Virus record (IMG/VR): IMGVR_UViG_3300038679_000051
Location: 32,001 to 96,000 of that record
DNA from: a virus
Lineage: Duplodnaviria > Caudoviricetes
Direction: 5' to 3' (one strand)
DNA: 64,000 nucleotides
The notes under the pieces are model-generated. The model was not told where the DNA came from and did no database searches. It was given only the letters and a program-made list of their open reading frames with translations. Position 1 is the stretch's first letter. Every line of letters starts with the position of its first letter. This document shows, piece by piece, positions 35,294 to 64,000 of the stretch. Position numbers and translations under genes: made by a program.

Positions 35294-35661
35294 CAATTTG
35301 AGGATGCGTCGAACGGGCCGATTTCATATTATGATTTTTTCTTAGTTGGTTTTCTCTTGGTTTTTCGTTTAGTTTGTGCGGATCGCATCATGGCCGTATC
35401 ATATCCGGCCATGATGGCATTGGCAAACCAACCAATCATCAATCCGCGCTGGTCCTGCACTATGCCTTCCTTAGTGAAGACGCTAAATCTTTTGCAGAAT
35501 TCCGAAGTCCATTTCTGTGCATCCAACGTGTGCGGCCAACGTTGTTTCTCCGTTTCGATCATCACTTTTATCCACCCATCTGGACCACATTGCTTTTTGC
35601 GCTGCCGTTGCTTTTTCATGTCTTGTTCCTTTCACAATTTGAGGATGCGTCGGGTGGGCCG
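35294..35661. repeat. Direct repeat pair flanking gene 35329-35619
   Basis: caatttgaggatgcgtcg-NNN-gggccg at 35294-35320 and 35635-35661. Confidence 0.85.
35329..35619 (-). CDS. Hypothetical protein
   Basis: AAAGGA RBS; DAQKWTSEF...MIGWFANAIMAGYD. Confidence 0.65.
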   Translation of the reverse strand: MKKQRQRKKQCGPDGWIKVMIETEKQRWPHTLDAQKWTSEFCKRFSVFTKEGIVQDQRGLMIGWFANAIMAGYDTAMMRSAQTKRKTKRKPTKKKS

Positions 35662-43139: not shown

Positions 43140-43760
43140 TTACGTTTGTACGCCCATTTTGTTGCCATCGGATCCGCCGCGCCATTTACATTTGGTCCAA
43201 GCATAGTTGACCGTTCGTTCTTTGATCGAACCGACCAACGTTGAATCTAATGCTTTGATGACCAATCCTTCCGTCCATGGGAGCGATTTCGACAATTCGA
43301 ACGCTTCAACAAAACTTTTACGCGTTCGATGCGTCACCGTCAATATTGGGCCAGGCAACGTCGAAAAATTCTTCAGCGTGTCGTCATTCCAGACGTTTGG
43401 CACGCAATCAAGGAAATTCATTCTTTCTGCGTATGTCATCCCACCCAACCATTCACCGGCATGGAACATTGCATCCCACAGAATGATCGTTTCCGGTCCA
43501 ACCGTACGACGTTCGAGCCATTCTCCATCTAGAATCGTGCCGCGTGGAAAGCTTAATTTTTCTTTTAAGAGTGTCGCCATCTCCTTTGAGATTGGGTGCT
43601 TTTTCCACTTTCTGGACCATGGCACGATGCCATGATCAGTAAATTCCAAATGAACCCTGTAACCATCTGCCTTGAATTCTGCAGAATATTTTCCTTCTTC
43701 AAATTCATTCAGACAATTCGGGAGCCGCCTTACGCAGTCGTCACAGTATCTTCTAAACAT
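43140..43760 (-). CDS. ATP-dependent ligase nucleotidyltransferase domain (no OB domain visible)
   Basis: EFKADGYR (motif I), ILDGEW (III), LWDAMF (IIIa), TEGLVIK (IV), WTKCK (V); 206 aa. Confidence 0.85.
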   Translation of the reverse strand: MFRRYCDDCVRRLPNCLNEFEEGKYSAEFKADGYRVHLEFTDHGIVPWSRKWKKHPISKEMATLLKEKLSFPRGTILDGEWLERRTVGPETIILWDAMFHAGEWLGGMTYAERMNFLDCVPNVWNDDTLKNFSTLPGPILTVTHRTRKSFVEAFELSKSLPWTEGLVIKALDSTLVGSIKERTVNYAWTKCKWRGGSDGNKMGVQT

Positions 43761-43790
43761 TATTCCTCCTTCGTGATTCGGAAACGTCAC

Positions 43791-45807
43791 TCAATGATTT
43801 ACCAATGATTTACCATCGAGTTCCCAACCGACGTTGTTCTTAGACAAAATGGATTCTCTTCCATTAAGAAGCAATTGTACTTTATGGACCGCATGTTGAT
43901 CAGCCAATGATATGATCGGCCATATTGCCGAATGCTTGAACATAATGGGTCTGGTTGTCTCGGCGCATGCCGTTTTGTCGGGCATGATGCGCATTCTTAC
44001 CCAACCAGTCTTTAACATGTCGCTCATGTTTAGGCCGTGAGCGATTGCCCACTCATTGTGAATGACATCCTTGAAGGTGAATGCCTTGTCATCGGGGTTG
44101 ATCCAAATCCCAATTCCTGCCTCTTTGAACAATTTGTTCTTCGCCATTTCATCGATGCGCATGTCCAGCCATTCCTTGAAATCCATGTTTCATTCCTTTA
44201 TCGTTTGTCCATGTTTTAACAACCATATCTGAAATTGGCACACGTTAACGTTCCACCCCTTGTCGCCCGTTGCCTTGGCGTATGCCTTACGGCACGCAGA
44301 AACCCAGAGAATGTAACCGGTCATTTTACCTCCCGGCCATTTCAGGTCATCATCTTGTAAGCACGCTTCCGGATCATCTGGGAATCCACGAGCTTTGCAG
44401 TAAGTGAGATAAGCATGCGTGAATTCCTGTTTCACCATCACTGGTAAATCCTAGGCACGTTGTTAGCCATGTCAAGTTTGAAACATTTCATTCGTTCGGT
44501 CAGGGGAACGGAATCATGTTGCTTCTTTCGAAATTCAACGATGTGTTTGTTGCGCTCTTTCTTGGTAAGGAATGGTCCGATCAATTTGCCAGCAGATAAG
44601 ACGTAGAAAGAGCCAGCCTTAACGTTTGTCTTAACGTTTGCGTGTACTATTAGACGCCAACCCAACATGTTGAGCGCCTCCAATGCAGCATCCTGCACGT
44701 CAATTGCTTTGACTACGAATGAATCATTTGCATCATTGTCGTTTTGGATCGTGAATTTTCTCATCTTTTTCCTCCCCATTTTTGCTTTCGGTTTGTGACA
44801 CCGCTTTGAAGACGTGCTCATGGACTGCGGCATCGGATTCAAATTTACCGCAAGCGTCGCAACGCTCAATGCGGACGCCATGGACGTCGTTTTCAACGAG
44901 CAAGTAACCACGACTCTCACACGCTTTGCATCTTTTATGCGCCATTTTCGCTCTCCTCCTTCTGCCGGTCCGTATCGGCAACGAGGTCGCCGCTCCGTGC
45001 GGGGAAAGCGACGTTGACGATGGCCTTCAATTGCTCGACGGTCAGCGTCTTGACGTCAATCTTCTCGAATTTACGAGTCAGACATTGTTTGAGATACCGA
45101 CATTTAAGATCTTCAGTTTCGACGCGATAAATCACGCGATCGTAGCTTTGACCGCCAACTATCCTCACTTGATCATATGTGTAGATTTCACGATAGAATT
45201 TGATGGGCGGCTGCGGCTTCATCCTTTCAACGACGGCTTGCTTTTCCGTCGTACGCGAAATCACGAACTTCGTCAGCCCCTGATAAAAATTGTCGGCGTA
45301 AACGACCATGCCGGCTTCAAGCTTTGCCATTTTCATCTCCTAATCTCTTTCCGAGTAAATTCCGTCCGTGGTCGGTTGTGATGCTTTATTGCCTAACAAT
45401 TTGCGGACAAATTTCAACGTTTTTCGTTCTTTAGGCGAACATTTCAATTTCATTTCATCCGAGATCGAGGATTGTGCAACGTCGAGCAGATTCAGAAAAT
45501 CGTCGTAGATTTCAGCCGGGATTGTAATCGTTTTGGTCTTCATTCTTTCCTACTCCTAACAGCTAAAGAGAATGTGTCGGTGCGTCTTAGGATTGTCTTC
45601 GCAACGACAGGGATTCGGTTGACCACTGTGAAACTTTTTATCTTTGGAGACTTTCCATCCACTGTTCACCGGTTGTTCCGAGTTAAGCCTTCTCGTCGCT
45701 TCCCTATTCGTCAAACTCGTACAGACGGAAGCATAACAGATTCCTAAACTGTAGATGGTAAAATCCTCGGCCTTCGTTGTCTTGGTCATCATCGTTTTTG
45801 TCTTCAT
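43791..45807 (-). other. Run of small hypothetical genes (43791-44186, 44190-44441, 44438-44764, 44733-44945, 44935-45336, 45340-45543, 45556-45807)
   Basis: Abutting co-oriented ORFs with RBSs; 44733 has two CxxC motifs. Confidence 0.6.
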
Positions 45808-45893
45808 TTGATCATCTCCAAAAATTGTTCCTCGCTAATCACTTTCGTGCCATACTTCTCAGCTTTTTTGGTCTTGCTACTTTGGCTTGACGG
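45804..45893 (-). pseudogene. Orphan second copy of the ligA 3' end (BRCT C-terminus, 29 codons + TGA)
   Basis: Encodes PSSQSSKTKKAEKYGTKVISEEQFLEMIK*, versus ligA PSSQSSKTRKAAKYGTKVISEEQFLEMIK (46670-46756): 27/29 aa identical and 20/87 nt different by hand count. Confidence 0.9.
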
Positions 45894-46576
45894 TCAATCT
45901 TTTCCTAAGCGCCTCGGCGAGTATTTCCACGTTTTCCAGGCTGTAATCATCTTTTAATGCAACCCTAAACGGATCTGAGTCGTGCTTACAGTATCGTTCA
46001 AATTCCTCTAGTTCTTCCGCATGGCGGGACAACAACCGCTTGCGGTTCTCATTATTTATCGCATCCCACTGAATATACCTGTCAACCGCTTCTCTTATGT
46101 TCATCCCGCCTCCCCTAAGTTGGCGAATTCCTCTTTGCAGTAAACTACCGCTATCATTTTATTTCTCTTACTACAAAGGCAAAGACATCGTCGGCATCGT
46201 CATCACGATAAATGAAATCGTATTCTTCATCCTCATCTTTTTCCAACTTCGTTTTTAACCAATGAAGTTTACGACGGGCCAAGAATTGTTTTTTGCTACC
46301 TTTGTTCTGATCTTCCGGAATTCCGCTTTTGCGAGCGCGTCGCTTCCAGTCCTTGAGTTCCGCAGCACGAAGTGGATCTTTCAAGCTGACGACAACGCGC
46401 AAGTCTTCCTCTAGCTCTTGCCAATCGTCGCTTTCACGTTCGAGCATGCGTTCACATAAACTCTGTCGAGCGGCATCATATGCGTTTTTAGCACGATAAA
46501 AATTTAACTGTGTTGGATCTAATCCTAGATGGTCAATAACATGTTGCGTCGTTGCTACGGCAAATCGTTTCATCAT
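45877..46576 (-). other. Two hypothetical genes (45877-46104, 46154-46576) between the two ligA 3' ends
   Basis: Co-oriented ORFs with GGAG RBSs. Confidence 0.65.
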
Positions 46577-46642
46577 TCTATTCTCCTTTGCTGGATGTTT
46601 CTACTTTCAACGGTCCCCGTGACCATAACGATCATCCCGACA

Positions 46643-48565
46643 TCAAGTGTACTCTGCAGCGCTGGACAATTTGATCATCTCCAGAAATTGCTCCTCACTA
46701 ATCACTTTTGTGCCGTATTTTGCGGCCTTGCGGGTTTTAGATGATTGGCTTGACGGGTCCGCTTGCACCAAGTGGGTCACCGTTGGACCGACTTCATCCT
46801 TCACCGCCCCACCGTTTTCAAGGACCAATTGCTGCGCCGCTGCCCGTTTCATACCCGACGGCAACGCTCCCGTAAACACCATGACGAGATTCGCCAGTTT
46901 CCCGCCGCTCGTCGCCGCCGGCGTCTCCTCCGCCGCGTCGTCCGCGTCACCGACGACCACGCCGTTTGCCAGCAGTTTGTCGACGAGTCCGCTACACGCC
47001 GCCAGTCCGGCCACGACGACAGGACCAATGCCGCTGCCGAGCGCAAGCGATTCTTCCGTCGTCATCTCACGCCATTCCCTGAGCGTCTTCTTGCCGCATT
47101 TCTTGATGAACTCTTCCGCCGCCCGTTTACCTAGGAAGCGGATGCCCAATGAGCCAATGAATTCGGCCAAGGTCAAATTCTTTTTCTTCTCAATCTCAGC
47201 AAGAATTGCTTGTGCTCGTTTGATGCCGAGATTGCCGTTGCCGACGGTCAGATTCGGCAACCTTTCCATGTCGAGGACGTAGAGATCGGCTGGGTCTTTA
47301 ACCAGACCGGATTCATACAACGCCGCTTCCACTTCCGGACCGATGAACTTGATGTCGTTCGACTTAATCCAGCGACGGACTTTACGGACGGCCTTACCGT
47401 CGCACTCGTCATTTTGACAAACCAATGCTGCACCATCGCGAGCCACCGCACCGCCACAGACTGGACAGACCGTTGGGATTGTAATTGGCGTACCACCCTT
47501 ACAGGATACTAACTTAGGGATCACATCCCCTGCTCTGATGACTTCGACCTCACCGCCGATCCCTAAATTGAGACGCTTAATCTCATCTTCATTGTTGACT
47601 AAGACGGAAGTGACGGTTACGCCGCCAATGTTGATCGGGTCAATTTTACCAACGGGGACGATGCTGCCGGTGTGACCTACCGACCATTCGATGGAACGTA
47701 GAATTGATTTTCCGCCCATCGGTGGGAATTTGTAAGCCATTTGACCCTTGGGGTTCTGGTCATGAAACCCAAGTGCCTTTTGCGTTGCAATGTCGTCAAA
47801 CCGCAGCACCAATCCATCCACTTCGAACGGCAGTGTGGCCCGTTCGTTACGTCGTTTGTCATAGACGGTTTGTATCAGACCCAATGTGTCTGCGCCAGTA
47901 ACCAATGCGCCCTCATCGACGTCGAATCCCAATCGAGCGAGATATTGTTGGTTATCCCGTTCGGTGTCGCAGCATGATTCACCGTCGCACAGCACGTCGT
48001 ATGCCTTTAGACGCAACCATTCACAACCATCACCGCGTTTGTTGCGCAATGCACCGTTACCGGCATTGCGGGGATTGGCACAATCGGCGAAATGCGTTTT
48101 AAATTCGTCTTGGTGGAGAATTGCCTCACCACGTACGTAACCGGTGAATTCTTCATTCAACCGTTGGGGAATGAATTTGGATTTCTTGACGTTTTCGGTC
48201 AGGTCCTCGCCGGTATTTCCATCCCCACGACTGATGGCCTGTACCAGTTGTCCCTTCTCGTATTTAAGAGACAATGAGCAGCCGTCGAACTTCCATTGGA
48301 CGAGAATTTTCGTACCAGGGGTTTTGTCCAACCAGCGCTTGATTTCTTTCTCATCCTTGACTTTGTTGAGACTGCCCATTGGGATGCTATGCTTGATCTT
48401 GGTAAAGAGGTCGGAGACTGGTGCCCCAACCGTTTTAAAGAACGGGTCGTTGGGATGTTCAGCCTTCGCCTCGTCATACAGACGGTCGTAATCGGCGTCT
48501 GACATGACTGCTTTGTCATTGTAGTAAGCTTCGGCAGCCTTCTTGAGCGCATCAATCTTGGTCAT
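46643..48565 (-). CDS. ligA: NAD-dependent DNA ligase
   Basis: YYNDKAVMSDADYD, KFDG, SRGDGNTGEDLT, VRGE, DGLV, AYKFP, VGHTGSIVPV, RAGDVIP, Zn finger CPVC...C...C, HhH motifs and BRCT (VFTG). Confidence 0.97.
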   Translation of the reverse strand: MTKIDALKKAAEAYYNDKAVMSDADYDRLYDEAKAEHPNDPFFKTVGAPVSDLFTKIKHSIPMGSLNKVKDEKEIKRWLDKTPGTKILVQWKFDGCSLSLKYEKGQLVQAISRGDGNTGEDLTENVKKSKFIPQRLNEEFTGYVRGEAILHQDEFKTHFADCANPRNAGNGALRNKRGDGCEWLRLKAYDVLCDGESCCDTERDNQQYLARLGFDVDEGALVTGADTLGLIQTVYDKRRNERATLPFEVDGLVLRFDDIATQKALGFHDQNPKGQMAYKFPPMGGKSILRSIEWSVGHTGSIVPVGKIDPINIGGVTVTSVLVNNEDEIKRLNLGIGGEVEVIRAGDVIPKLVSCKGGTPITIPTVCPVCGGAVARDGAALVCQNDECDGKAVRKVRRWIKSNDIKFIGPEVEAALYESGLVKDPADLYVLDMERLPNLTVGNGNLGIKRAQAILAEIEKKKNLTLAEFIGSLGIRFLGKRAAEEFIKKCGKKTLREWREMTTEESLALGSGIGPVVVAGLAACSGLVDKLLANGVVVGDADDAAEETPAATSGGKLANLVMVFTGALPSGMKRAAAQQLVLENGGAVKDEVGPTVTHLVQADPSSQSSKTRKAAKYGTKVISEEQFLEMIKLSSAAEYT

Positions 48566-48800
48566 TCTTCAGTCTCCTTAGATTCTTTCGTCTCATGCTC
48601 TTCACGCAGTTCGTCCAACAATCCCGTGATTTCATCATATGAAAATCCGGTCTTTCTAGCGAGTCGATACGTCAACTGATGATACTGATTGCCTGGCAAT
48701 GATTCCAGGGAATCAACCGGATCGTCACCAAGAACGTCAATCTTTTTCAATTCAGCGAGCATGACGTTCTTCTTATCAATCTTAGTCATTCTGTCTCCTT
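48551..48800. repeat. Direct repeat of RBS + MTKID start flanking gene 48562-48789
   Basis: atcaatctt(g/a)gtcattct...gtctcctt at 48551-48579 and 48775-48800. Confidence 0.7.
48562..48789 (-). CDS. Hypothetical protein
   Basis: AAGGAG RBS; starts MTKIDKK. Confidence 0.6.
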   Translation of the reverse strand: MTKIDKKNVMLAELKKIDVLGDDPVDSLESLPGNQYHQLTYRLARKTGFSYDEITGLLDELREEHETKESKETEE

Positions 48801-49474
48801 TTGGGGTTTGAACCAACGAGTATCTTGATCTTGAATTTTTTATTAACGTATTCAAGTGCCTCATTGTTCTGTTTTACTGCCGCCATGCACAATTCTGGCG
48901 TCTGCTCCTTAACGTATTCAAGTGCCTCACCATTTTGTTTTACCGCCGTCATACATACCTCTGGCGTTTGTTTTTTGACATATTTAAGTGCCCAGCCATT
49001 TTCTTTTACTGCTGCCATGCATATTTCTGGCGTCTGCTTTTTAACAAATTCAAGTGCCAAGCCATATTGTCTCACTGTCGCCATACAGATTTCTGGTGTC
49101 TGTTCCTTGACATGCTGAAGTGCATGACCATTTTGTTGTACTGCAGTCAGACATGTATCTGGTGTTTGTTTTTTGACATGCTGAAGTGCATGACCATTTT
49201 GTCTTACTGCTGCCATGCACAATTCTGGCGTCTGCTCCTTGACATATTCAAGCGCATAACCATTTTGTTTTACTGTTGCCATACAGATTGCGGGAAATTG
49301 TTTATCTATATTCTTGCATGTGGAATATAAATCTATTCCATCATCCAATAATTTCTTGACAATCGTTGTATCCTTCATCTGTTTATAATCATCAATCTTT
49401 CTCACTGCTTTGATTACGTCATTCAATTGTTCTTTGGTTACGGTCGTTATCCAGGCGTTCTTTCTCTTCTTCAT
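48782..49474 (-). CDS. MHW-cap / DUF4116-repeat protein 8 (decayed start)
   Basis: Cap reads NAWITTVTKEQLNDV; ATG overlaps the upstream TGA; about 6.5 repeats. Confidence 0.8.
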   Translation of the reverse strand: MKKRKNAWITTVTKEQLNDVIKAVRKIDDYKQMKDTTIVKKLLDDGIDLYSTCKNIDKQFPAICMATVKQNGYALEYVKEQTPELCMAAVRQNGHALQHVKKQTPDTCLTAVQQNGHALQHVKEQTPEICMATVRQYGLALEFVKKQTPEICMAAVKENGWALKYVKKQTPEVCMTAVKQNGEALEYVKEQTPELCMAAVKQNNEALEYVNKKFKIKILVGSNPKRRQND

Positions 49475-50115
49475 TGTAGTGCATAACCATCTTCTCGTAC
49501 TGCTGCCATACATATTTCTGGCGTCTGTTCTTTGATATCTTGAAGCGCCCAGCCATCCTGTTGTACTGCCGCCAGATATGCCTTCTTTTTAGTCATGGTC
49601 ATTGTTTTCACGTCAAAAACAAGACCATCATCATCAAACTTCTTTTTAGTCATGGTCATTGTTTTCACGTCAAAAACAAGATCATCATCAACAGTTCCGT
49701 TACATTCTTCCTCTTCCTTTACTTCTATTAATTCAATTAAATGTCGGTATTTTTTCGGTGTCTTTTTAATTACATCATCTTTATCATCCTCATAAATAAA
49801 CATCGTCGAATTAGCTACATCCCTTGGCCAACCAGCAAGCGTCAATAATTTAATCTTTAATGGCCATGCATATTGCTCAAGATAATCAAAGTTATTTTCT
49901 TTGATATCCATGAGAAACCTCGTTGAGTCGATTTTCAATTCCTCTAATATTGCTTCCATAATTTCATCATTGATTCTCATCTTAATGCATACTCCCTCTT
50001 CTTCGTCTTCTGGATCGTACGCATACCCCTTGTCGTTCTTCACGACGATGTCTTTTTCATACCAGATGCCACCGTCATCTGTCTCGGTGTCAAAATCGAA
50101 AATGTAGGTCATCAT
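49471..50115 (-). CDS. Acidic hypothetical protein fused to ~1.5 DUF4116 repeats
   Basis: C-terminus AAVQQDGWALQDIKEQTPEICMAAVREDGYALQ, preceded by a 57-bp in-frame duplication (LVFDVKTMTMTKKK x2). Confidence 0.7.
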   Translation of the reverse strand: MMTYIFDFDTETDDGGIWYEKDIVVKNDKGYAYDPEDEEEGVCIKMRINDEIMEAILEELKIDSTRFLMDIKENNFDYLEQYAWPLKIKLLTLAGWPRDVANSTMFIYEDDKDDVIKKTPKKYRHLIELIEVKEEEECNGTVDDDLVFDVKTMTMTKKKFDDDGLVFDVKTMTMTKKKAYLAAVQQDGWALQDIKEQTPEICMAAVREDGYALQ

Positions 50116-60672: not shown

Positions 60673-61471
60673 CTATCCGTTGTACGCCGTCTGACAATCC
60701 TCATCGCAGCATCGTTGCCCGCGTTCTGTCGGTTCAAACCAATTTCCACACCAATCACATTGTCGCGGATTTTGCCATGATGGACATCCGGTCTCATGAC
60801 AAAAAACGCCATTTATCATGACTGCTTCACAATCATCGCATTTCTTAACCTTCCGTGGCTTAATTCCGGGCATTCTCTCCTTTCTTGTAGTATGGATTGA
60901 CAAACGTTCCTCATTTCTGCAGGTAGCCAGAAATCCTATCCAATCACGAATGTGTTGAATGCTGTCCAAATCATGAAGATTCGTCTGAATTTCAAACTCA
61001 TCACCTTTCAATCTATAATGCATCCATACGTTTCCATTTTCATAAAAGATGATATAAACGTTCGCCAATGGTACGCCGAACGGCGATTCTAATTTAAATG
61101 ATGCCGTGGCTACTTGAGTGGCTACTTGAACGAATTTAATGCCCAAGTCTTTGGTCAATTCATCGAGGATTTTCTGATACATGGCCTCAATTTCCTGACG
61201 TTGGTCGTCTCTGCTTCTTCTTTTTGTCTGATTCATCTATGAATGGCATTACATTTCCACTGTTAATATCATCCTTGATGTTGATTTTTATATGGTGATC
61301 CATTAACCAATCCACCAAGAACAATAGACCAATCCACCAAGAACAATAGTCGCAATTCCATTCCTTTCCATTTACAGTAAAGCCACTTCTTGACTTCCTT
61401 GTGAAAACTATCTTAAATTCACGAATGTCCGGTTTTTGCTTCTTTTGCTTCTTTTGTTTTTTCATTTTCAT
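60673..61471 (-). other. Two hypothetical genes (60673-61182, 61187-61471)
   Basis: 60673 ends in a Cys-rich cluster (CDDC...CHETGC...CDWC...CCDEDC). Confidence 0.55.
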
Positions 61472-61499
61472 TCTCCTCTTTCTGCGTCCACGGAGCAGA

Positions 61500-61521
61500 C
61501 GACCATCAACATTGATGGTCG
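61500..61521. promoter_or_regulatory. 22-bp palindrome abutting the middle repeat
   Basis: CGACCATCAA-CA-TTGATGGTCG. Confidence 0.55.
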
Positions 61522-61548
61522 TCATTCCCTCAATTTCCTGACGTTTCT

Positions 61549-62160
61549 CTACTTCTTCTTTATGGAAAGTGATTCTATTTCAAATTTAGTTGTATCGACA
61601 AAATCTATTACCTCCGTCATATTTGCTGCAATTGCTGCATCAATCGCTGCAGTGCAAATTTCCAACGTCTGCTTTTTAACAAATTCAAGCGCCATCCCGC
61701 ATTTCTGCACTGCTGCCAGACATATTTCCGGCGTCTGCTTTTTTACATATTCAAGCGCCTGACCATTTTGTTTTACTGCCGCCAGACATATTTCAGGTGT
61801 CTGTTTTTTGACATATCGAAGTGCCCAACCATTTTCTTTTACTGCTGCCATACATATTTCCGGCGTCTGCTTTTTTACATATTCAAGCGCCTGACCATTT
61901 TGTTTTACTGCCGCCAGACATATCTCTGGCGTCTGATCTTTGACGAATTTAATTGTATAACCATTTCGTTGTACTGCTGCCATGCATATTTCAGGAAATT
62001 GATCGCCCAAATCATGGAGTACGCCCCACAAGCTTATTTCATTGTTCAACAATCTCTCTACAATCGTTTCATCCTTCATCTGTTTATAATCGTCAATCTT
62101 CTGCACTACTTGAATTACGTCGCTTATTTGTTTCTTGCTTGCGTTCGTCATCCAGTGCAC
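61549..62160 (-). CDS. MHW-cap / DUF4116-repeat protein 10
   Basis: GTG start, MHWMTNASKKQI cap plus about 5 repeats. Confidence 0.85.
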   Translation of the reverse strand: MHWMTNASKKQISDVIQVVQKIDDYKQMKDETIVERLLNNEISLWGVLHDLGDQFPEICMAAVQRNGYTIKFVKDQTPEICLAAVKQNGQALEYVKKQTPEICMAAVKENGWALRYVKKQTPEICLAAVKQNGQALEYVKKQTPEICLAAVQKCGMALEFVKKQTLEICTAAIDAAIAANMTEVIDFVDTTKFEIESLSIKKK

Positions 62161-62170
62161 GTTTTATCTC

Positions 62171-62830
62171 CTATGCCAGAATGCAGATCTTGGTCTTGAA
62201 TTTCCTATCAACATATTTAAGTGCATCACCATTTTGTCTTACCGCTGCCATGCATATTTCTGGCGTCTGTTCTTTGACATATTCAAGTGCTGCACCATTT
62301 TGTCGTACTGCGGCCATGCATATTTCTGGCGTCTGTTTTTTGACAAACCGAAGTGCATCACCATCTTGTTGTACTGCTGCCAGGCATATTTCTGGCGTCT
62401 GTTTTTTGACATATACAAGTACCCAACCCCATTGTTGTACTACTGCCATACATATTTCTGGCGTCTGTTCCTTGACATATTTAAGTGCATCATTATCTTG
62501 TTGTACTGCTGCCATGCATATTTCTGGTGTTTGTTCCTTGACGTGTTCAAGTGCTGCACCATTTTGTCGTACTGCCGCCATGCATATTTCTGGTGTCTGT
62601 TCCTTGACATATACAAGTACATGACCCCATTGTTGTACTGCTGCCAGGCATATGGCTGGAAATTGATTGTCTAAATGTTTAAGCACATCACTTAAAACCC
62701 GAATCTCATCATCCAATAATTTCTTAACGATCGTTTCGTCCTTCATCTGTTTATAATTGCCATCAAACTTTCTCACTGCTTCAATCACATCATTCAATTG
62801 TTCCTTACTTGCGTTCGTCATCCAGTGCAT
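62171..62830 (-). CDS. MHW-cap / DUF4116-repeat protein 11
   Basis: MHWMTNASKEQL cap plus about 6.5 repeats. Confidence 0.85.
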   Translation of the reverse strand: MHWMTNASKEQLNDVIEAVRKFDGNYKQMKDETIVKKLLDDEIRVLSDVLKHLDNQFPAICLAAVQQWGHVLVYVKEQTPEICMAAVRQNGAALEHVKEQTPEICMAAVQQDNDALKYVKEQTPEICMAVVQQWGWVLVYVKKQTPEICLAAVQQDGDALRFVKKQTPEICMAAVRQNGAALEYVKEQTPEICMAAVRQNGDALKYVDRKFKTKICILA

Positions 62831-62869
62831 GTTTATCTCCTATTGGACCAATTTGTCTCTTTTGTTATT

Positions 62870-64000
62870 TCATTCCCTCAATTTCCTGACGTTGGTCGTC
62901 TCTACTTCCTCATCGTCTGAGGCTGGTGTGGCGTTTTCCTTGGCCCAATTTGCCATTGTCTCCAATTGCTTGGCGCGTGATTTGGCCAATGGTGTGAAGC
63001 TGTCCATTTCTGCCAAGATGTGTTCCTTGGTCAATTGGCGATCACCGCCCATGTGATAAGCATGAAACAATCCACCGATGACGGCTTGTTCGATTTCTGC
63101 GCCACTGTAATCCCTAGATTGTTTGACCAATTCATCAACGCCGACCTTCTTTGGATCGCGACCGTGTTTGCGGATTTGGATTTCAAAAATGTCCTTACGT
63201 TCCCTCTCAGACGGCAGACCGACGAAGAAGATTTCGTCGAAGCGACCTTTTCTGAGCAATTCATCTGGCAACAAATCAATTCTGTTCACTGTGGCCATGA
63301 TGAAGGCTTGTGATTTCTTTTCCTGCATCCACGTAATGAAGGTGCCGAACACCCGTTTGCCGGTGCCGCCGTCAGTCTCACCGCTACCGCCCATTCCGGC
63401 GAATGCCTTGTCCAATTCATCGATCCAGACGATGCAGCGACCGACGGCATCGATCGTGTTGATGGCCGTCCGCACGTTTGCTTCCGATTGACCGACCAAC
63501 GACCCAAATACTTTGCCGACGTCAAATCGAATGAGTGGGACGCCGATTAGGTTTGATGCTGCTTTGGCGGCGAGGCTTTTACCACACCCTGGCAGGCCCA
63601 CCAGCATGACGCCCTTCGGCGACGGCAGACCATACTGTTTCGCCTCTTTGGTGAAGCATGGTTGGACGCGATTTTTGAGCCATCGTTTCAAGCGGTTCAA
63701 ACCACCCACGTCTTCAGGTTTCTCAACCGCCTCGAAGATTTCCAAGATGCCGCTCTTTTTGACCGCCAATGATTTTTCTTTCATGACAATTCGACTGATC
63801 GGTAGATCAAGATTCAATTTCTTTTTGTCGATTGCTGCCTTTGCGATTGCGTTTTCCGCTTCACCAATCGTCAGCCCCATAGCTGATTGGATGATCATGT
63901 CTTTTTCTTCTTCCTCGATCTTACCGAAAACGTTCTTATTCTCAGACATCAGATTATCCAAGACTAACAGGATGTCTTTCTCTGATGGCAAATCGAATTC
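62870..64000 (-). CDS. AAA+ ATPase, Ycf46/SpoVK-like (5' end outside the window)
   Basis: DVGGLNRLKRWL, GVMLVGLPGCGKS (Walker A), VWIDELDK (Walker B), ATVN, LLRKGRFDE (SRH); frame open to the window edge. Confidence 0.92.
   Translation of the reverse strand, partial: EFDLPSEKDILLVLDNLMSENKNVFGKIEEEEKDMIIQSAMGLTIGEAENAIAKAAIDKKKLNLDLPISRIVMKEKSLAVKKSGILEIFEAVEKPEDVGGLNRLKRWLKNRVQPCFTKEAKQYGLPSPKGVMLVGLPGCGKSLAAKAASNLIGVPLIRFDVGKVFGSLVGQSEANVRTAINTIDAVGRCIVWIDELDKAFAGMGGSGETDGGTGKRVFGTFITWMQEKKSQAFIMATVNRIDLLPDELLRKGRFDEIFFVGLPSERERKDIFEIQIRKHGRDPKKVGVDELVKQSRDYSGAEIEQAVIGGLFHAYHMGGDRQLTKEHILAEMDSFTPLAKSRAKQLETMANWAKENATPASDDEEVETTNVRKLRE

Follow-up and report, generated by a model that had tools for sequence, protein, structure and literature searches.

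A two-gene insert between two diverged copies of the DNA ligase gene end in a jumbo phage genome

Introduction

Why would a phage DNA ligase gene have two 3′ ends? The question is raised by a locus in an environmental jumbo phage of the Caudoviricetes (IMG/VR record IMGVR_UViG_3300038679_000051, genome ~320 kb), where the NAD-dependent DNA ligase gene, ligA, is followed on the minus strand by two small genes, here called g140 and g75, and then by a second copy of its own last 29 codons, the orphan tail. The orphan tail runs into the next gene, g83, and the minus-strand order continues with g67 and g133. The window analysed here is the 64,000-nucleotide stretch covering bases 32001-96000 of the 320,399 bp record, which has direct terminal repeats and is rated complete; coordinates are positions in this window unless stated otherwise. 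The sequencing runs that hold this stretch are groundwater and coal metagenomes.

The evidence presented here suggests that the locus is, on balance, probably a recombination scar, in which a cassette of g140 and g75 would lie inside the last 29 codons of ligA, flanked by gene ends from two diverged phage lineages. The locus is not demonstrated as a new mobile element.

Results

The two ligase gene ends form a direct repeat of 88 nt (45806-45893 versus 46669-46756) with 68 of 88 nt identical (77%) and a spacing of 863 nt. The repeat was recovered independently by MAFFT, by a repeat-family search and by a genome self-comparison with BLAST (E 1e-10). It encodes the final 29 codons of ligA twice, with 27 of 29 amino acids the same and 20 of 87 nt different. 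Of the codons affected, 11 changed synonymously (two of them serine codons that switched between AGY and TCN), and two carry replacements (K to R and E to A) at sites that also vary among ligase homologs; the nucleotide differences fall 4/4/12 across the three codon positions. The first 12 nt of the repeat are the same in both copies and have no other occurrence in the 320-kb genome, and the six bases after this block all differ between the copies. The features of the ligase gene end are as follows.

46643-48565, minus strand: ligA, intact, a 640-aa NAD-dependent DNA ligase (Pfam adenylation, OB and BRCT domains; PHROG 3869, E 2.5e-151)
46669-46756, minus strand: resident repeat copy at the ligA end (29 codons, PSSQSSKTRKAAKYGTKVISEEQFLEMIK), closing the BRCT domain (MAFFT, repeat search)
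45806-45893, minus strand: orphan ligA tail, consisting of PSSQSSKTKKAEKYGTKVISEEQFLEMIK and the first stop-codon base (MAFFT, repeat search)
46745-46756, minus strand: 12-nt identical block CCGTCAAGCCAA in the ligA copy, candidate crossover point
45882-45893, minus strand: 12-nt identical block CCGTCAAGCCAA in the orphan copy
46643-46668, minus strand: non-homologous extension of 8 codons (LSSAAEYT) and TGA, which replaces the canonical ligA stop and starts the inserted DNA
46577-46642, minus strand: 66-nt spacer with the ribosome-binding site of g140, AAAGGAGAA (read from the sequence)

The pattern of substitutions indicates how the two tails diverged. When 20 random substitutions were placed in either tail, at least 6 amino acid changes resulted in every one of 200,000 trials, compared to the 2 observed. 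The Nei-Gojobori proportion of synonymous differences (pS) between the tails is 0.735, at saturation; outside the 12-nt block, 12 of the 23 codons that encode the same amino acid are identical, and full saturation would leave 10.2. With so few replacements alongside saturated synonymous sites, the data show that both tails diverged as working ligase ends, under purifying selection at the protein level, in different genomes or lineages. An untranslated copy drifting for that long would be scrambled, which excludes duplication followed by decay within this genome.

The two copies also end differently. Unrelated ligases terminate in ..EEQFLEMIK and a stop. The closest ligase among 5.8 billion proteins, P0001 (62% identical to ligA over its full length), ends in ..EMLK at the orphan's end point, and 10 further homologs stop at ..EMIK or ..EMLK; on the 6-kb contig of P0001, from the European Nucleotide Archive (ENA; sample ERZ27247989), a 580-nt gap without a called gene follows directly after ligA. 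The resident copy lacks this canonical stop. Its repeat homology stops after ATCAAAT and gives way to the 8 codons of non-homologous DNA, and the BRCT match in ligA (residues 556-631) reaches the profile end within the resident copy. With its stop removed by the junction, the upstream tail now completes ligA and adds a chance extension of 8 aa.

The orphan tail retains what the resident copy has lost. It reads ..FLEMIK, followed by a TGA (45804-45806) that overlaps the ATG of g83 (AAATGA), and it contains a GGAG located 8 nt upstream of that ATG. Its frame is shut by a TGA immediately before its first codon, CCG, and the orphan therefore cannot be translated from upstream. The downstream tail is an untranslated remnant that keeps the canonical end, and its only role is to provide the ribosome-binding site and start overlap of g83. 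The original prediction, a note made from the sequence alone, had reported the same 29-codon match with the same counts, had proposed that both copies evolved as coding sequence in different lineages, and had assigned the orphan's TGA and ribosome-binding site to the next gene; the codon count, the simulations and the junction motifs bear out all three statements.

We considered which of the two tails is local. At the 11 synonymous sites, the orphan's codons are ~12-fold more typical than those of the resident tail, judged against either the genome or the ligA body; on the strength of 11 codons, this weakly favours the orphan as the local tail. An orphan that is the original local end, and a resident tail that came with the insert, would fit both the canonical stop and the codon typicality, though this falls short of proof. 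In metagenome contigs, no orphan tail was found; tail-only ligase matches were genes cut by contig ends, together with one stand-alone BRCT open reading frame (ORF).

Base composition does not mark the boundary. The genome has a GC content of 41.5%, and sampled lines of the 3′ third of ligA had been described as about 65-72% GC, which holds for 46800-47100 (65-67.5%, with third-position GC (GC3) up to 0.87), but not for the remainder of ligA (~50-55%) or its tail (45%). Along ligA, GC3 shows no step at the repeat boundary. The GC-rich patch itself, of ~300 nt, is the variable linker before the BRCT domain; at this linker, the P0001 sequence differs and has a gap of 4 aa.

The 12-nt block (codons for Pro, Ser, Ser and Gln) has a chance probability of 0.007 according to genome codon usage or 0.07 according to a crude identity rate. 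Such an improbable identity argues against a joint formed by a few bases of chance microhomology, and strand exchange probably took place at this block, as the original prediction had supposed when it named these bases a candidate crossover core. The block, one of only two long identical stretches in the repeat, fits either a crossover by homologous recombination or a site-specific core.

The DNA between the two tails is ~775 nt long and contains two genes, followed by the orphan tail and g83.

46154-46576, minus strand: g140, inserted gene, 140 aa, from a small family (five relatives, E 5e-12 to 3e-4)
45877-46104, minus strand: g75, inserted 75-aa ORFan, predicted helical, with a GGGGAGG ribosome-binding site upstream of its ATG
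45556-45807, minus strand: g83, 83-aa downstream gene whose start overlaps the orphan stop (homologs 53-61% identical)

Across its five relatives, the g140 family has a conserved N-terminus (MKRFAVSSTxHxIDYLGLD) and a conserved C-terminus. An AlphaFold (AF2) model of g140, with a predicted local distance difference test score (pLDDT) of 85, has the order beta-beta-alpha-alpha-alpha-beta-beta, forming a four-stranded sheet with a helical insert. Compared with the Protein Data Bank (PDB), the model most closely resembles PurS and ribosomal protein eL20, with Z<=6.9, a level that the search tool counts as a common arrangement. No nuclease or recombinase was among these structural matches, and searches of the ESM Atlas by features and by structure returned nothing above noise. 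The g75 protein has no relatives in anything searched and a poor model (pLDDT 64). Its TAG stop lies 17 nt inside the orphan in another frame, so that its last 5 codons are also within the orphan repeat, and these junction-encoded final residues are poorly modelled. Neither g140 nor g75 has a match in Pfam, PHROGs, NCBIfam or PADLOC.

The neighbours of these genes differ elsewhere. Contig L066, which shares its ENA study series with P0001, has a g140 homolog directly after an AAA_5 ATPase gene, which has a 64%-identical counterpart in this genome ~34 kb from ligA. The g140 family therefore changes locus between related phages. There is no gene-end repeat around the L066 homolog. The small g83 is widespread among phages: homologs (53-61% identity) occur in at least four unrelated phage contigs, in varied contexts that lack ligA, g140 and g75, and never adjoining a ligase gene. 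We found no paralogs of g140, g75, g83 or the ligA tail elsewhere in the genome, and queries with g140, g75 and g83 returned no related loci in IMG/VR.

We then compared the locus with assembled contigs (Logan), which drop rare variants. Contigs from at least five independent samples cross both junctions with 100% identity, indicating that the arrangement is not an assembly artefact. All contigs that carry the exact g83 or g75 protein are 100% identical to the window with the same layout, showing no population variation. The contigs did not report a joint between 45800 and 46760, although a rare excision would not show in contigs. One lake run and one soil run contain, at low depth, near-identical 151- to 207-nt pieces of g83, none of which reaches the junction; one extends 51 nt into an orphan-type tail. 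Contigs from an RNA library span 45801-45951 and 46575-46830, with DNA carry-over as a possible source.

No close relative with an empty site or a donor form was found in a phage record collection (blastn), in IMG/VR (protein and alignment searches), in metagenome contigs, in GTDB genome contigs or in the search of 5.8 billion proteins. None of the collections searched holds a ligase relative above 62% amino acid identity. There are no Rfam matches within 45300-47000, and a promoter and terminator scan of the locus gave no more matches than expected by chance, including a single promoter-like match in the 66-nt spacer. The hexamer AAATTG, present at several junctions, was dropped as a signal; it is common genome-wide (~300 per strand).

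Using the genome self-comparison, we listed other gene-end duplications. At least four shorter, near-identical ones bracket small genes elsewhere in the genome. The first is an 18-nt exact repeat, CGACGCATCCTCAAATTG, which encodes the gene end RRILKL and its stop at 35635-35652 and 35294-35311, around a 96-aa gene (35329-35619). The second is the end of an AAA-ATPase gene (EVETTNVRKLRE and its stop), whose last 36-42 nt (62870-62911) are repeated at 61522-61558 and 61185-61220 with 85-94% identity; these copies each finish with a GAGG ribosome-binding site and an ATG and, within 61185-62911, they keep two DUF4116-repeat genes and a 112-aa gene apart. Two more lie outside the window. At G000:C1:106626-106991 (window-equivalent 74626/74962), the 30-nt end of a 440-aa gene is repeated 336 nt downstream with 97% identity and brackets a 102-aa gene. 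At G000:C1:117866-118081 (window-equivalent 85866/86034), a 48-nt end is repeated 168 nt downstream with 98% identity, around a 48-aa ORF. The ribosome-binding region of the gene that follows is contained in every gene-end copy. Duplication of gene ends recurs in this phage, and the ligA case is the longest and the sole diverged one.

Two further observations concern the surroundings. A 216-aa nucleotidyltransferase gene at 43140-43790, similar to ATP-dependent ligases or capping enzymes, follows the NAD-dependent ligase gene at a distance of 2.9 kb downstream, which gives the phage two ligase-type genes close together. Large families of DUF4116-like repeat genes with a 66-nt period (..MAAVKQNGxALxYVKEQTPE..) occupy 48782-50115 and many other places in the genome. 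In run X5, contigs for 48782-50115 come in variants with many joints, pointing to a varying number of repeats or to related strains.

Discussion

Several mechanisms would produce a ligase gene with two ends. According to the explanation that we favour, a cassette would have entered the ligA tail, duplicating the 88-nt gene end, and the shorter near-identical duplications around single small genes elsewhere in the genome may have arisen by the same process. Later, general homologous recombination with a co-infecting phage of a diverged, related lineage would have produced a crossover within the 12-nt block, so that each lineage contributed one of the two tails; the RecA homolog that the phage itself encodes (355 bits, a 366-aa open frame at G000:C1:180747-181520) is a possible agent. 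A one-step route, in which a cassette with its own tail recombined into a naive ligA, could yield the same product. By either route, the conserved ligase tail would act as a homology arm and an element-encoded recombinase would be unnecessary. The displaced tail would persist because the ribosome-binding site and start overlap of g83 lie in it. We infer the order of events, their direction, the number of steps and the agent. Recombination between two related phages, originally offered as an alternative to an integrating element, becomes here a part of the explanation and is not a true rival to it.

Several points weigh against the scar explanation. The empty site, with ligA ending in ..FLEMIK and a stop and then g83, is absent from all relatives found, and a donor form with both tails of the resident type was seen in none of them. 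With lengths of 30-48 nt and identities of 85-98%, the remaining gene-end duplications of the genome may differ in cause from an 88-nt repeat with 77% identity. The significance of the 12-nt block depends on only four codons. Finally, g140 and g75 have no assigned function, and an unrecognised enzyme may be encoded.

The closest known counterparts are insertions with long target duplication, as found for bacterial restriction-modification units (Furuta, Abe and Kobayashi 2010, PMC2853133, citing Nobusato et al. 2000 for the first description). In common with our locus, these bacterial insertions place a short cassette without a mobility gene between direct repeats of more than 30 bp (here 88 nt), and each repeat corresponds to a stretch of the target that has been duplicated and that often overlaps a gene's 3′ end (PMC2853133). 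The insert at ligA, however, is in the genome of a jumbo phage and carries no restriction-modification system. Moreover, the known repeats are near-identical (44/46 and 417/423), whereas the ligA repeats are 77% identical with saturated synonymous sites, and one copy here therefore comes from another lineage. The ligA repeat, at 68/88 nt, is not a fresh duplication, and it is reconciled with this class only through a second step of inter-lineage recombination.

A bolder version of the same explanation is that the cassette is a passive, recombinase-free hitch-hiker between jumbo-phage lineages, using its own ligase tail as a portable homology arm, and that the locus is one instance of genome-wide gene gain by gene-end duplication (at least five loci). 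We put this forward only tentatively, and would sooner expect it to fail than to hold. If true, new genes would join tightly coupled operons while the upstream gene and the downstream start remain unbroken.

Of the rival mechanisms, a dedicated site-specific mini-element survives best, though we consider it unlikely. It would be an 863-bp circle made up of the core, a surrogate ligA tail, g140 and g75, integrating at CCGTCAAGCCAA by the action of g140 or g75 or of a host or helper recombinase. Its appeal is the position of the 12-nt identity, exactly at the upstream edge of both copies with saturated divergence elsewhere, and the fact that a circular form would still close g75, with ..TVKPII and a stop in the resident-copy sequence. 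The layout also equals that of e14 and phage 21, which integrate in the 3′ end of the Escherichia coli icd gene and leave an icdC remnant. There, as here, the target gene stays intact through a surrogate 3′ end that differs at synonymous sites, its own former end is orphaned downstream, and an identical core is found at both junctions. However, e14 and phage 21 encode an integrase and extend over tens of kilobases, compared to 775 nt and two small genes at ligA; the e14 case in icd is a subject of PMC6379469. No integrase or recombinase emerged from the families of g140 and g75, from the g140 fold or from the search of the 320-kb genome. The g140 and g75 proteins match no integrase, resolvase, HUH transposase or nuclease family, nor does the g140 model match such a fold, and the whole-genome search gave no Phage_integrase, Resolvase, HNH, GIY-YIG or PDDEXK_1 match. 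Furthermore, the core occurs at this locus only, the L066 homolog of g140 is situated elsewhere without a flanking gene-end repeat, and g75 has no relatives. From the original claim of an element that integrates inside a gene and brings a replacement 3′ end, the layout stands; an autonomous integrating element is not supported, as there is no recombinase or nuclease match and the core is unique.

A single event of homology-facilitated illegitimate recombination, a process that de Vries and Wackernagel reportedly described in 2002, appears improbable as well. In such an event, a linear fragment carrying part of ligA with g140 and g75 would be anchored in ligA, and its far end would be joined to the recipient tail by microhomology, making the 12-nt identity coincidental. 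As that process is said to operate, a single homologous segment anchors foreign DNA, which is joined on next to it without mobility genes; this would account for the two lineages, the one orphan and the lack of mobility genes at ligA. It would also accommodate the junction-encoded, poorly modelled last residues of g75. Its joints, however, reportedly involve a few bases of microhomology, while the ligA locus has a 12-nt identical block directly at the joint (P ~0.007-0.07) and its partners would be phage genomes.

Homing-type spread is a poor candidate, with little probability in our estimation. A comparable arrangement is described for free-standing endonuclease ORFs of fungal mitochondria, which carry duplicated gene C-termini. 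For the phage, a nuclease would cut a naive ligA near the core, and repair from a cassette-bearing phage would rely on homology confined to the ligA side; what follows the cut in the recipient would survive as the orphan. The orphan indeed starts abruptly at one point, and the many synonymous differences of the resident tail would suit immunity of the target site. Excerpts of PMC2988022 and PMC10448857 describe the free-standing homing endonuclease genes of T4-like phages as small inserts between or at the ends of conserved replication genes, similar to the insert here, with flanking sequence co-converted between phages; an excerpt of PMC10448857 also reports phage nuclease genes at the boundaries of inter-phage exchange. 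Unlike those systems, this locus has no recognisable nuclease gene, and homing normally leaves no duplicated gene end. The genome has no HNH or GIY-YIG match, and g140 and g75 have no sequence-family match to the site-specific nucleases (HNH, GIY-YIG, LAGLIDADG, PD-(D/E)xK or EDxHD). The g140 fold matches no nuclease, its best matches being PurS and eL20 (Z<=6.9), and the g75 model (pLDDT 64) is too poor for a structure search.

Tandem duplication in this genome with divergence in place, for which the near-identical gene-end duplications elsewhere would offer a precedent, and an assembly artefact both have a negligible probability and are refuted: only 2 of 29 amino acids differ, the frame has no stop or indel and is not scrambled at all sites, the orphan frame is closed upstream, and independent assemblies from at least five samples cross both junctions identically.

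The kind of scar is already known. What is new is that it affects a replication gene of a jumbo phage, that the two gene-end copies have diverged to synonymous saturation, and that fresher duplications accompany it elsewhere in the genome. Taken as a single locus, it is an ordinary member of a scar type described in bacteria. For the biology of these phages, the locus presents a clean, datable case in which a packed genome gains accessory genes inside an essential replication gene and keeps that gene: the incoming DNA would have mended ligA with its own diverged end, and the displaced end would be retained for the translation start of the next gene. The saturated synonymous divergence indicates that ligases of two rather distant lineages came together in one genome, and the locus thus marks mosaic exchange among uncultured groundwater jumbo phages. 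The process may be recurrent, as the fresher gene-end duplications elsewhere in this phage suggest, and it is worth a survey across phages.

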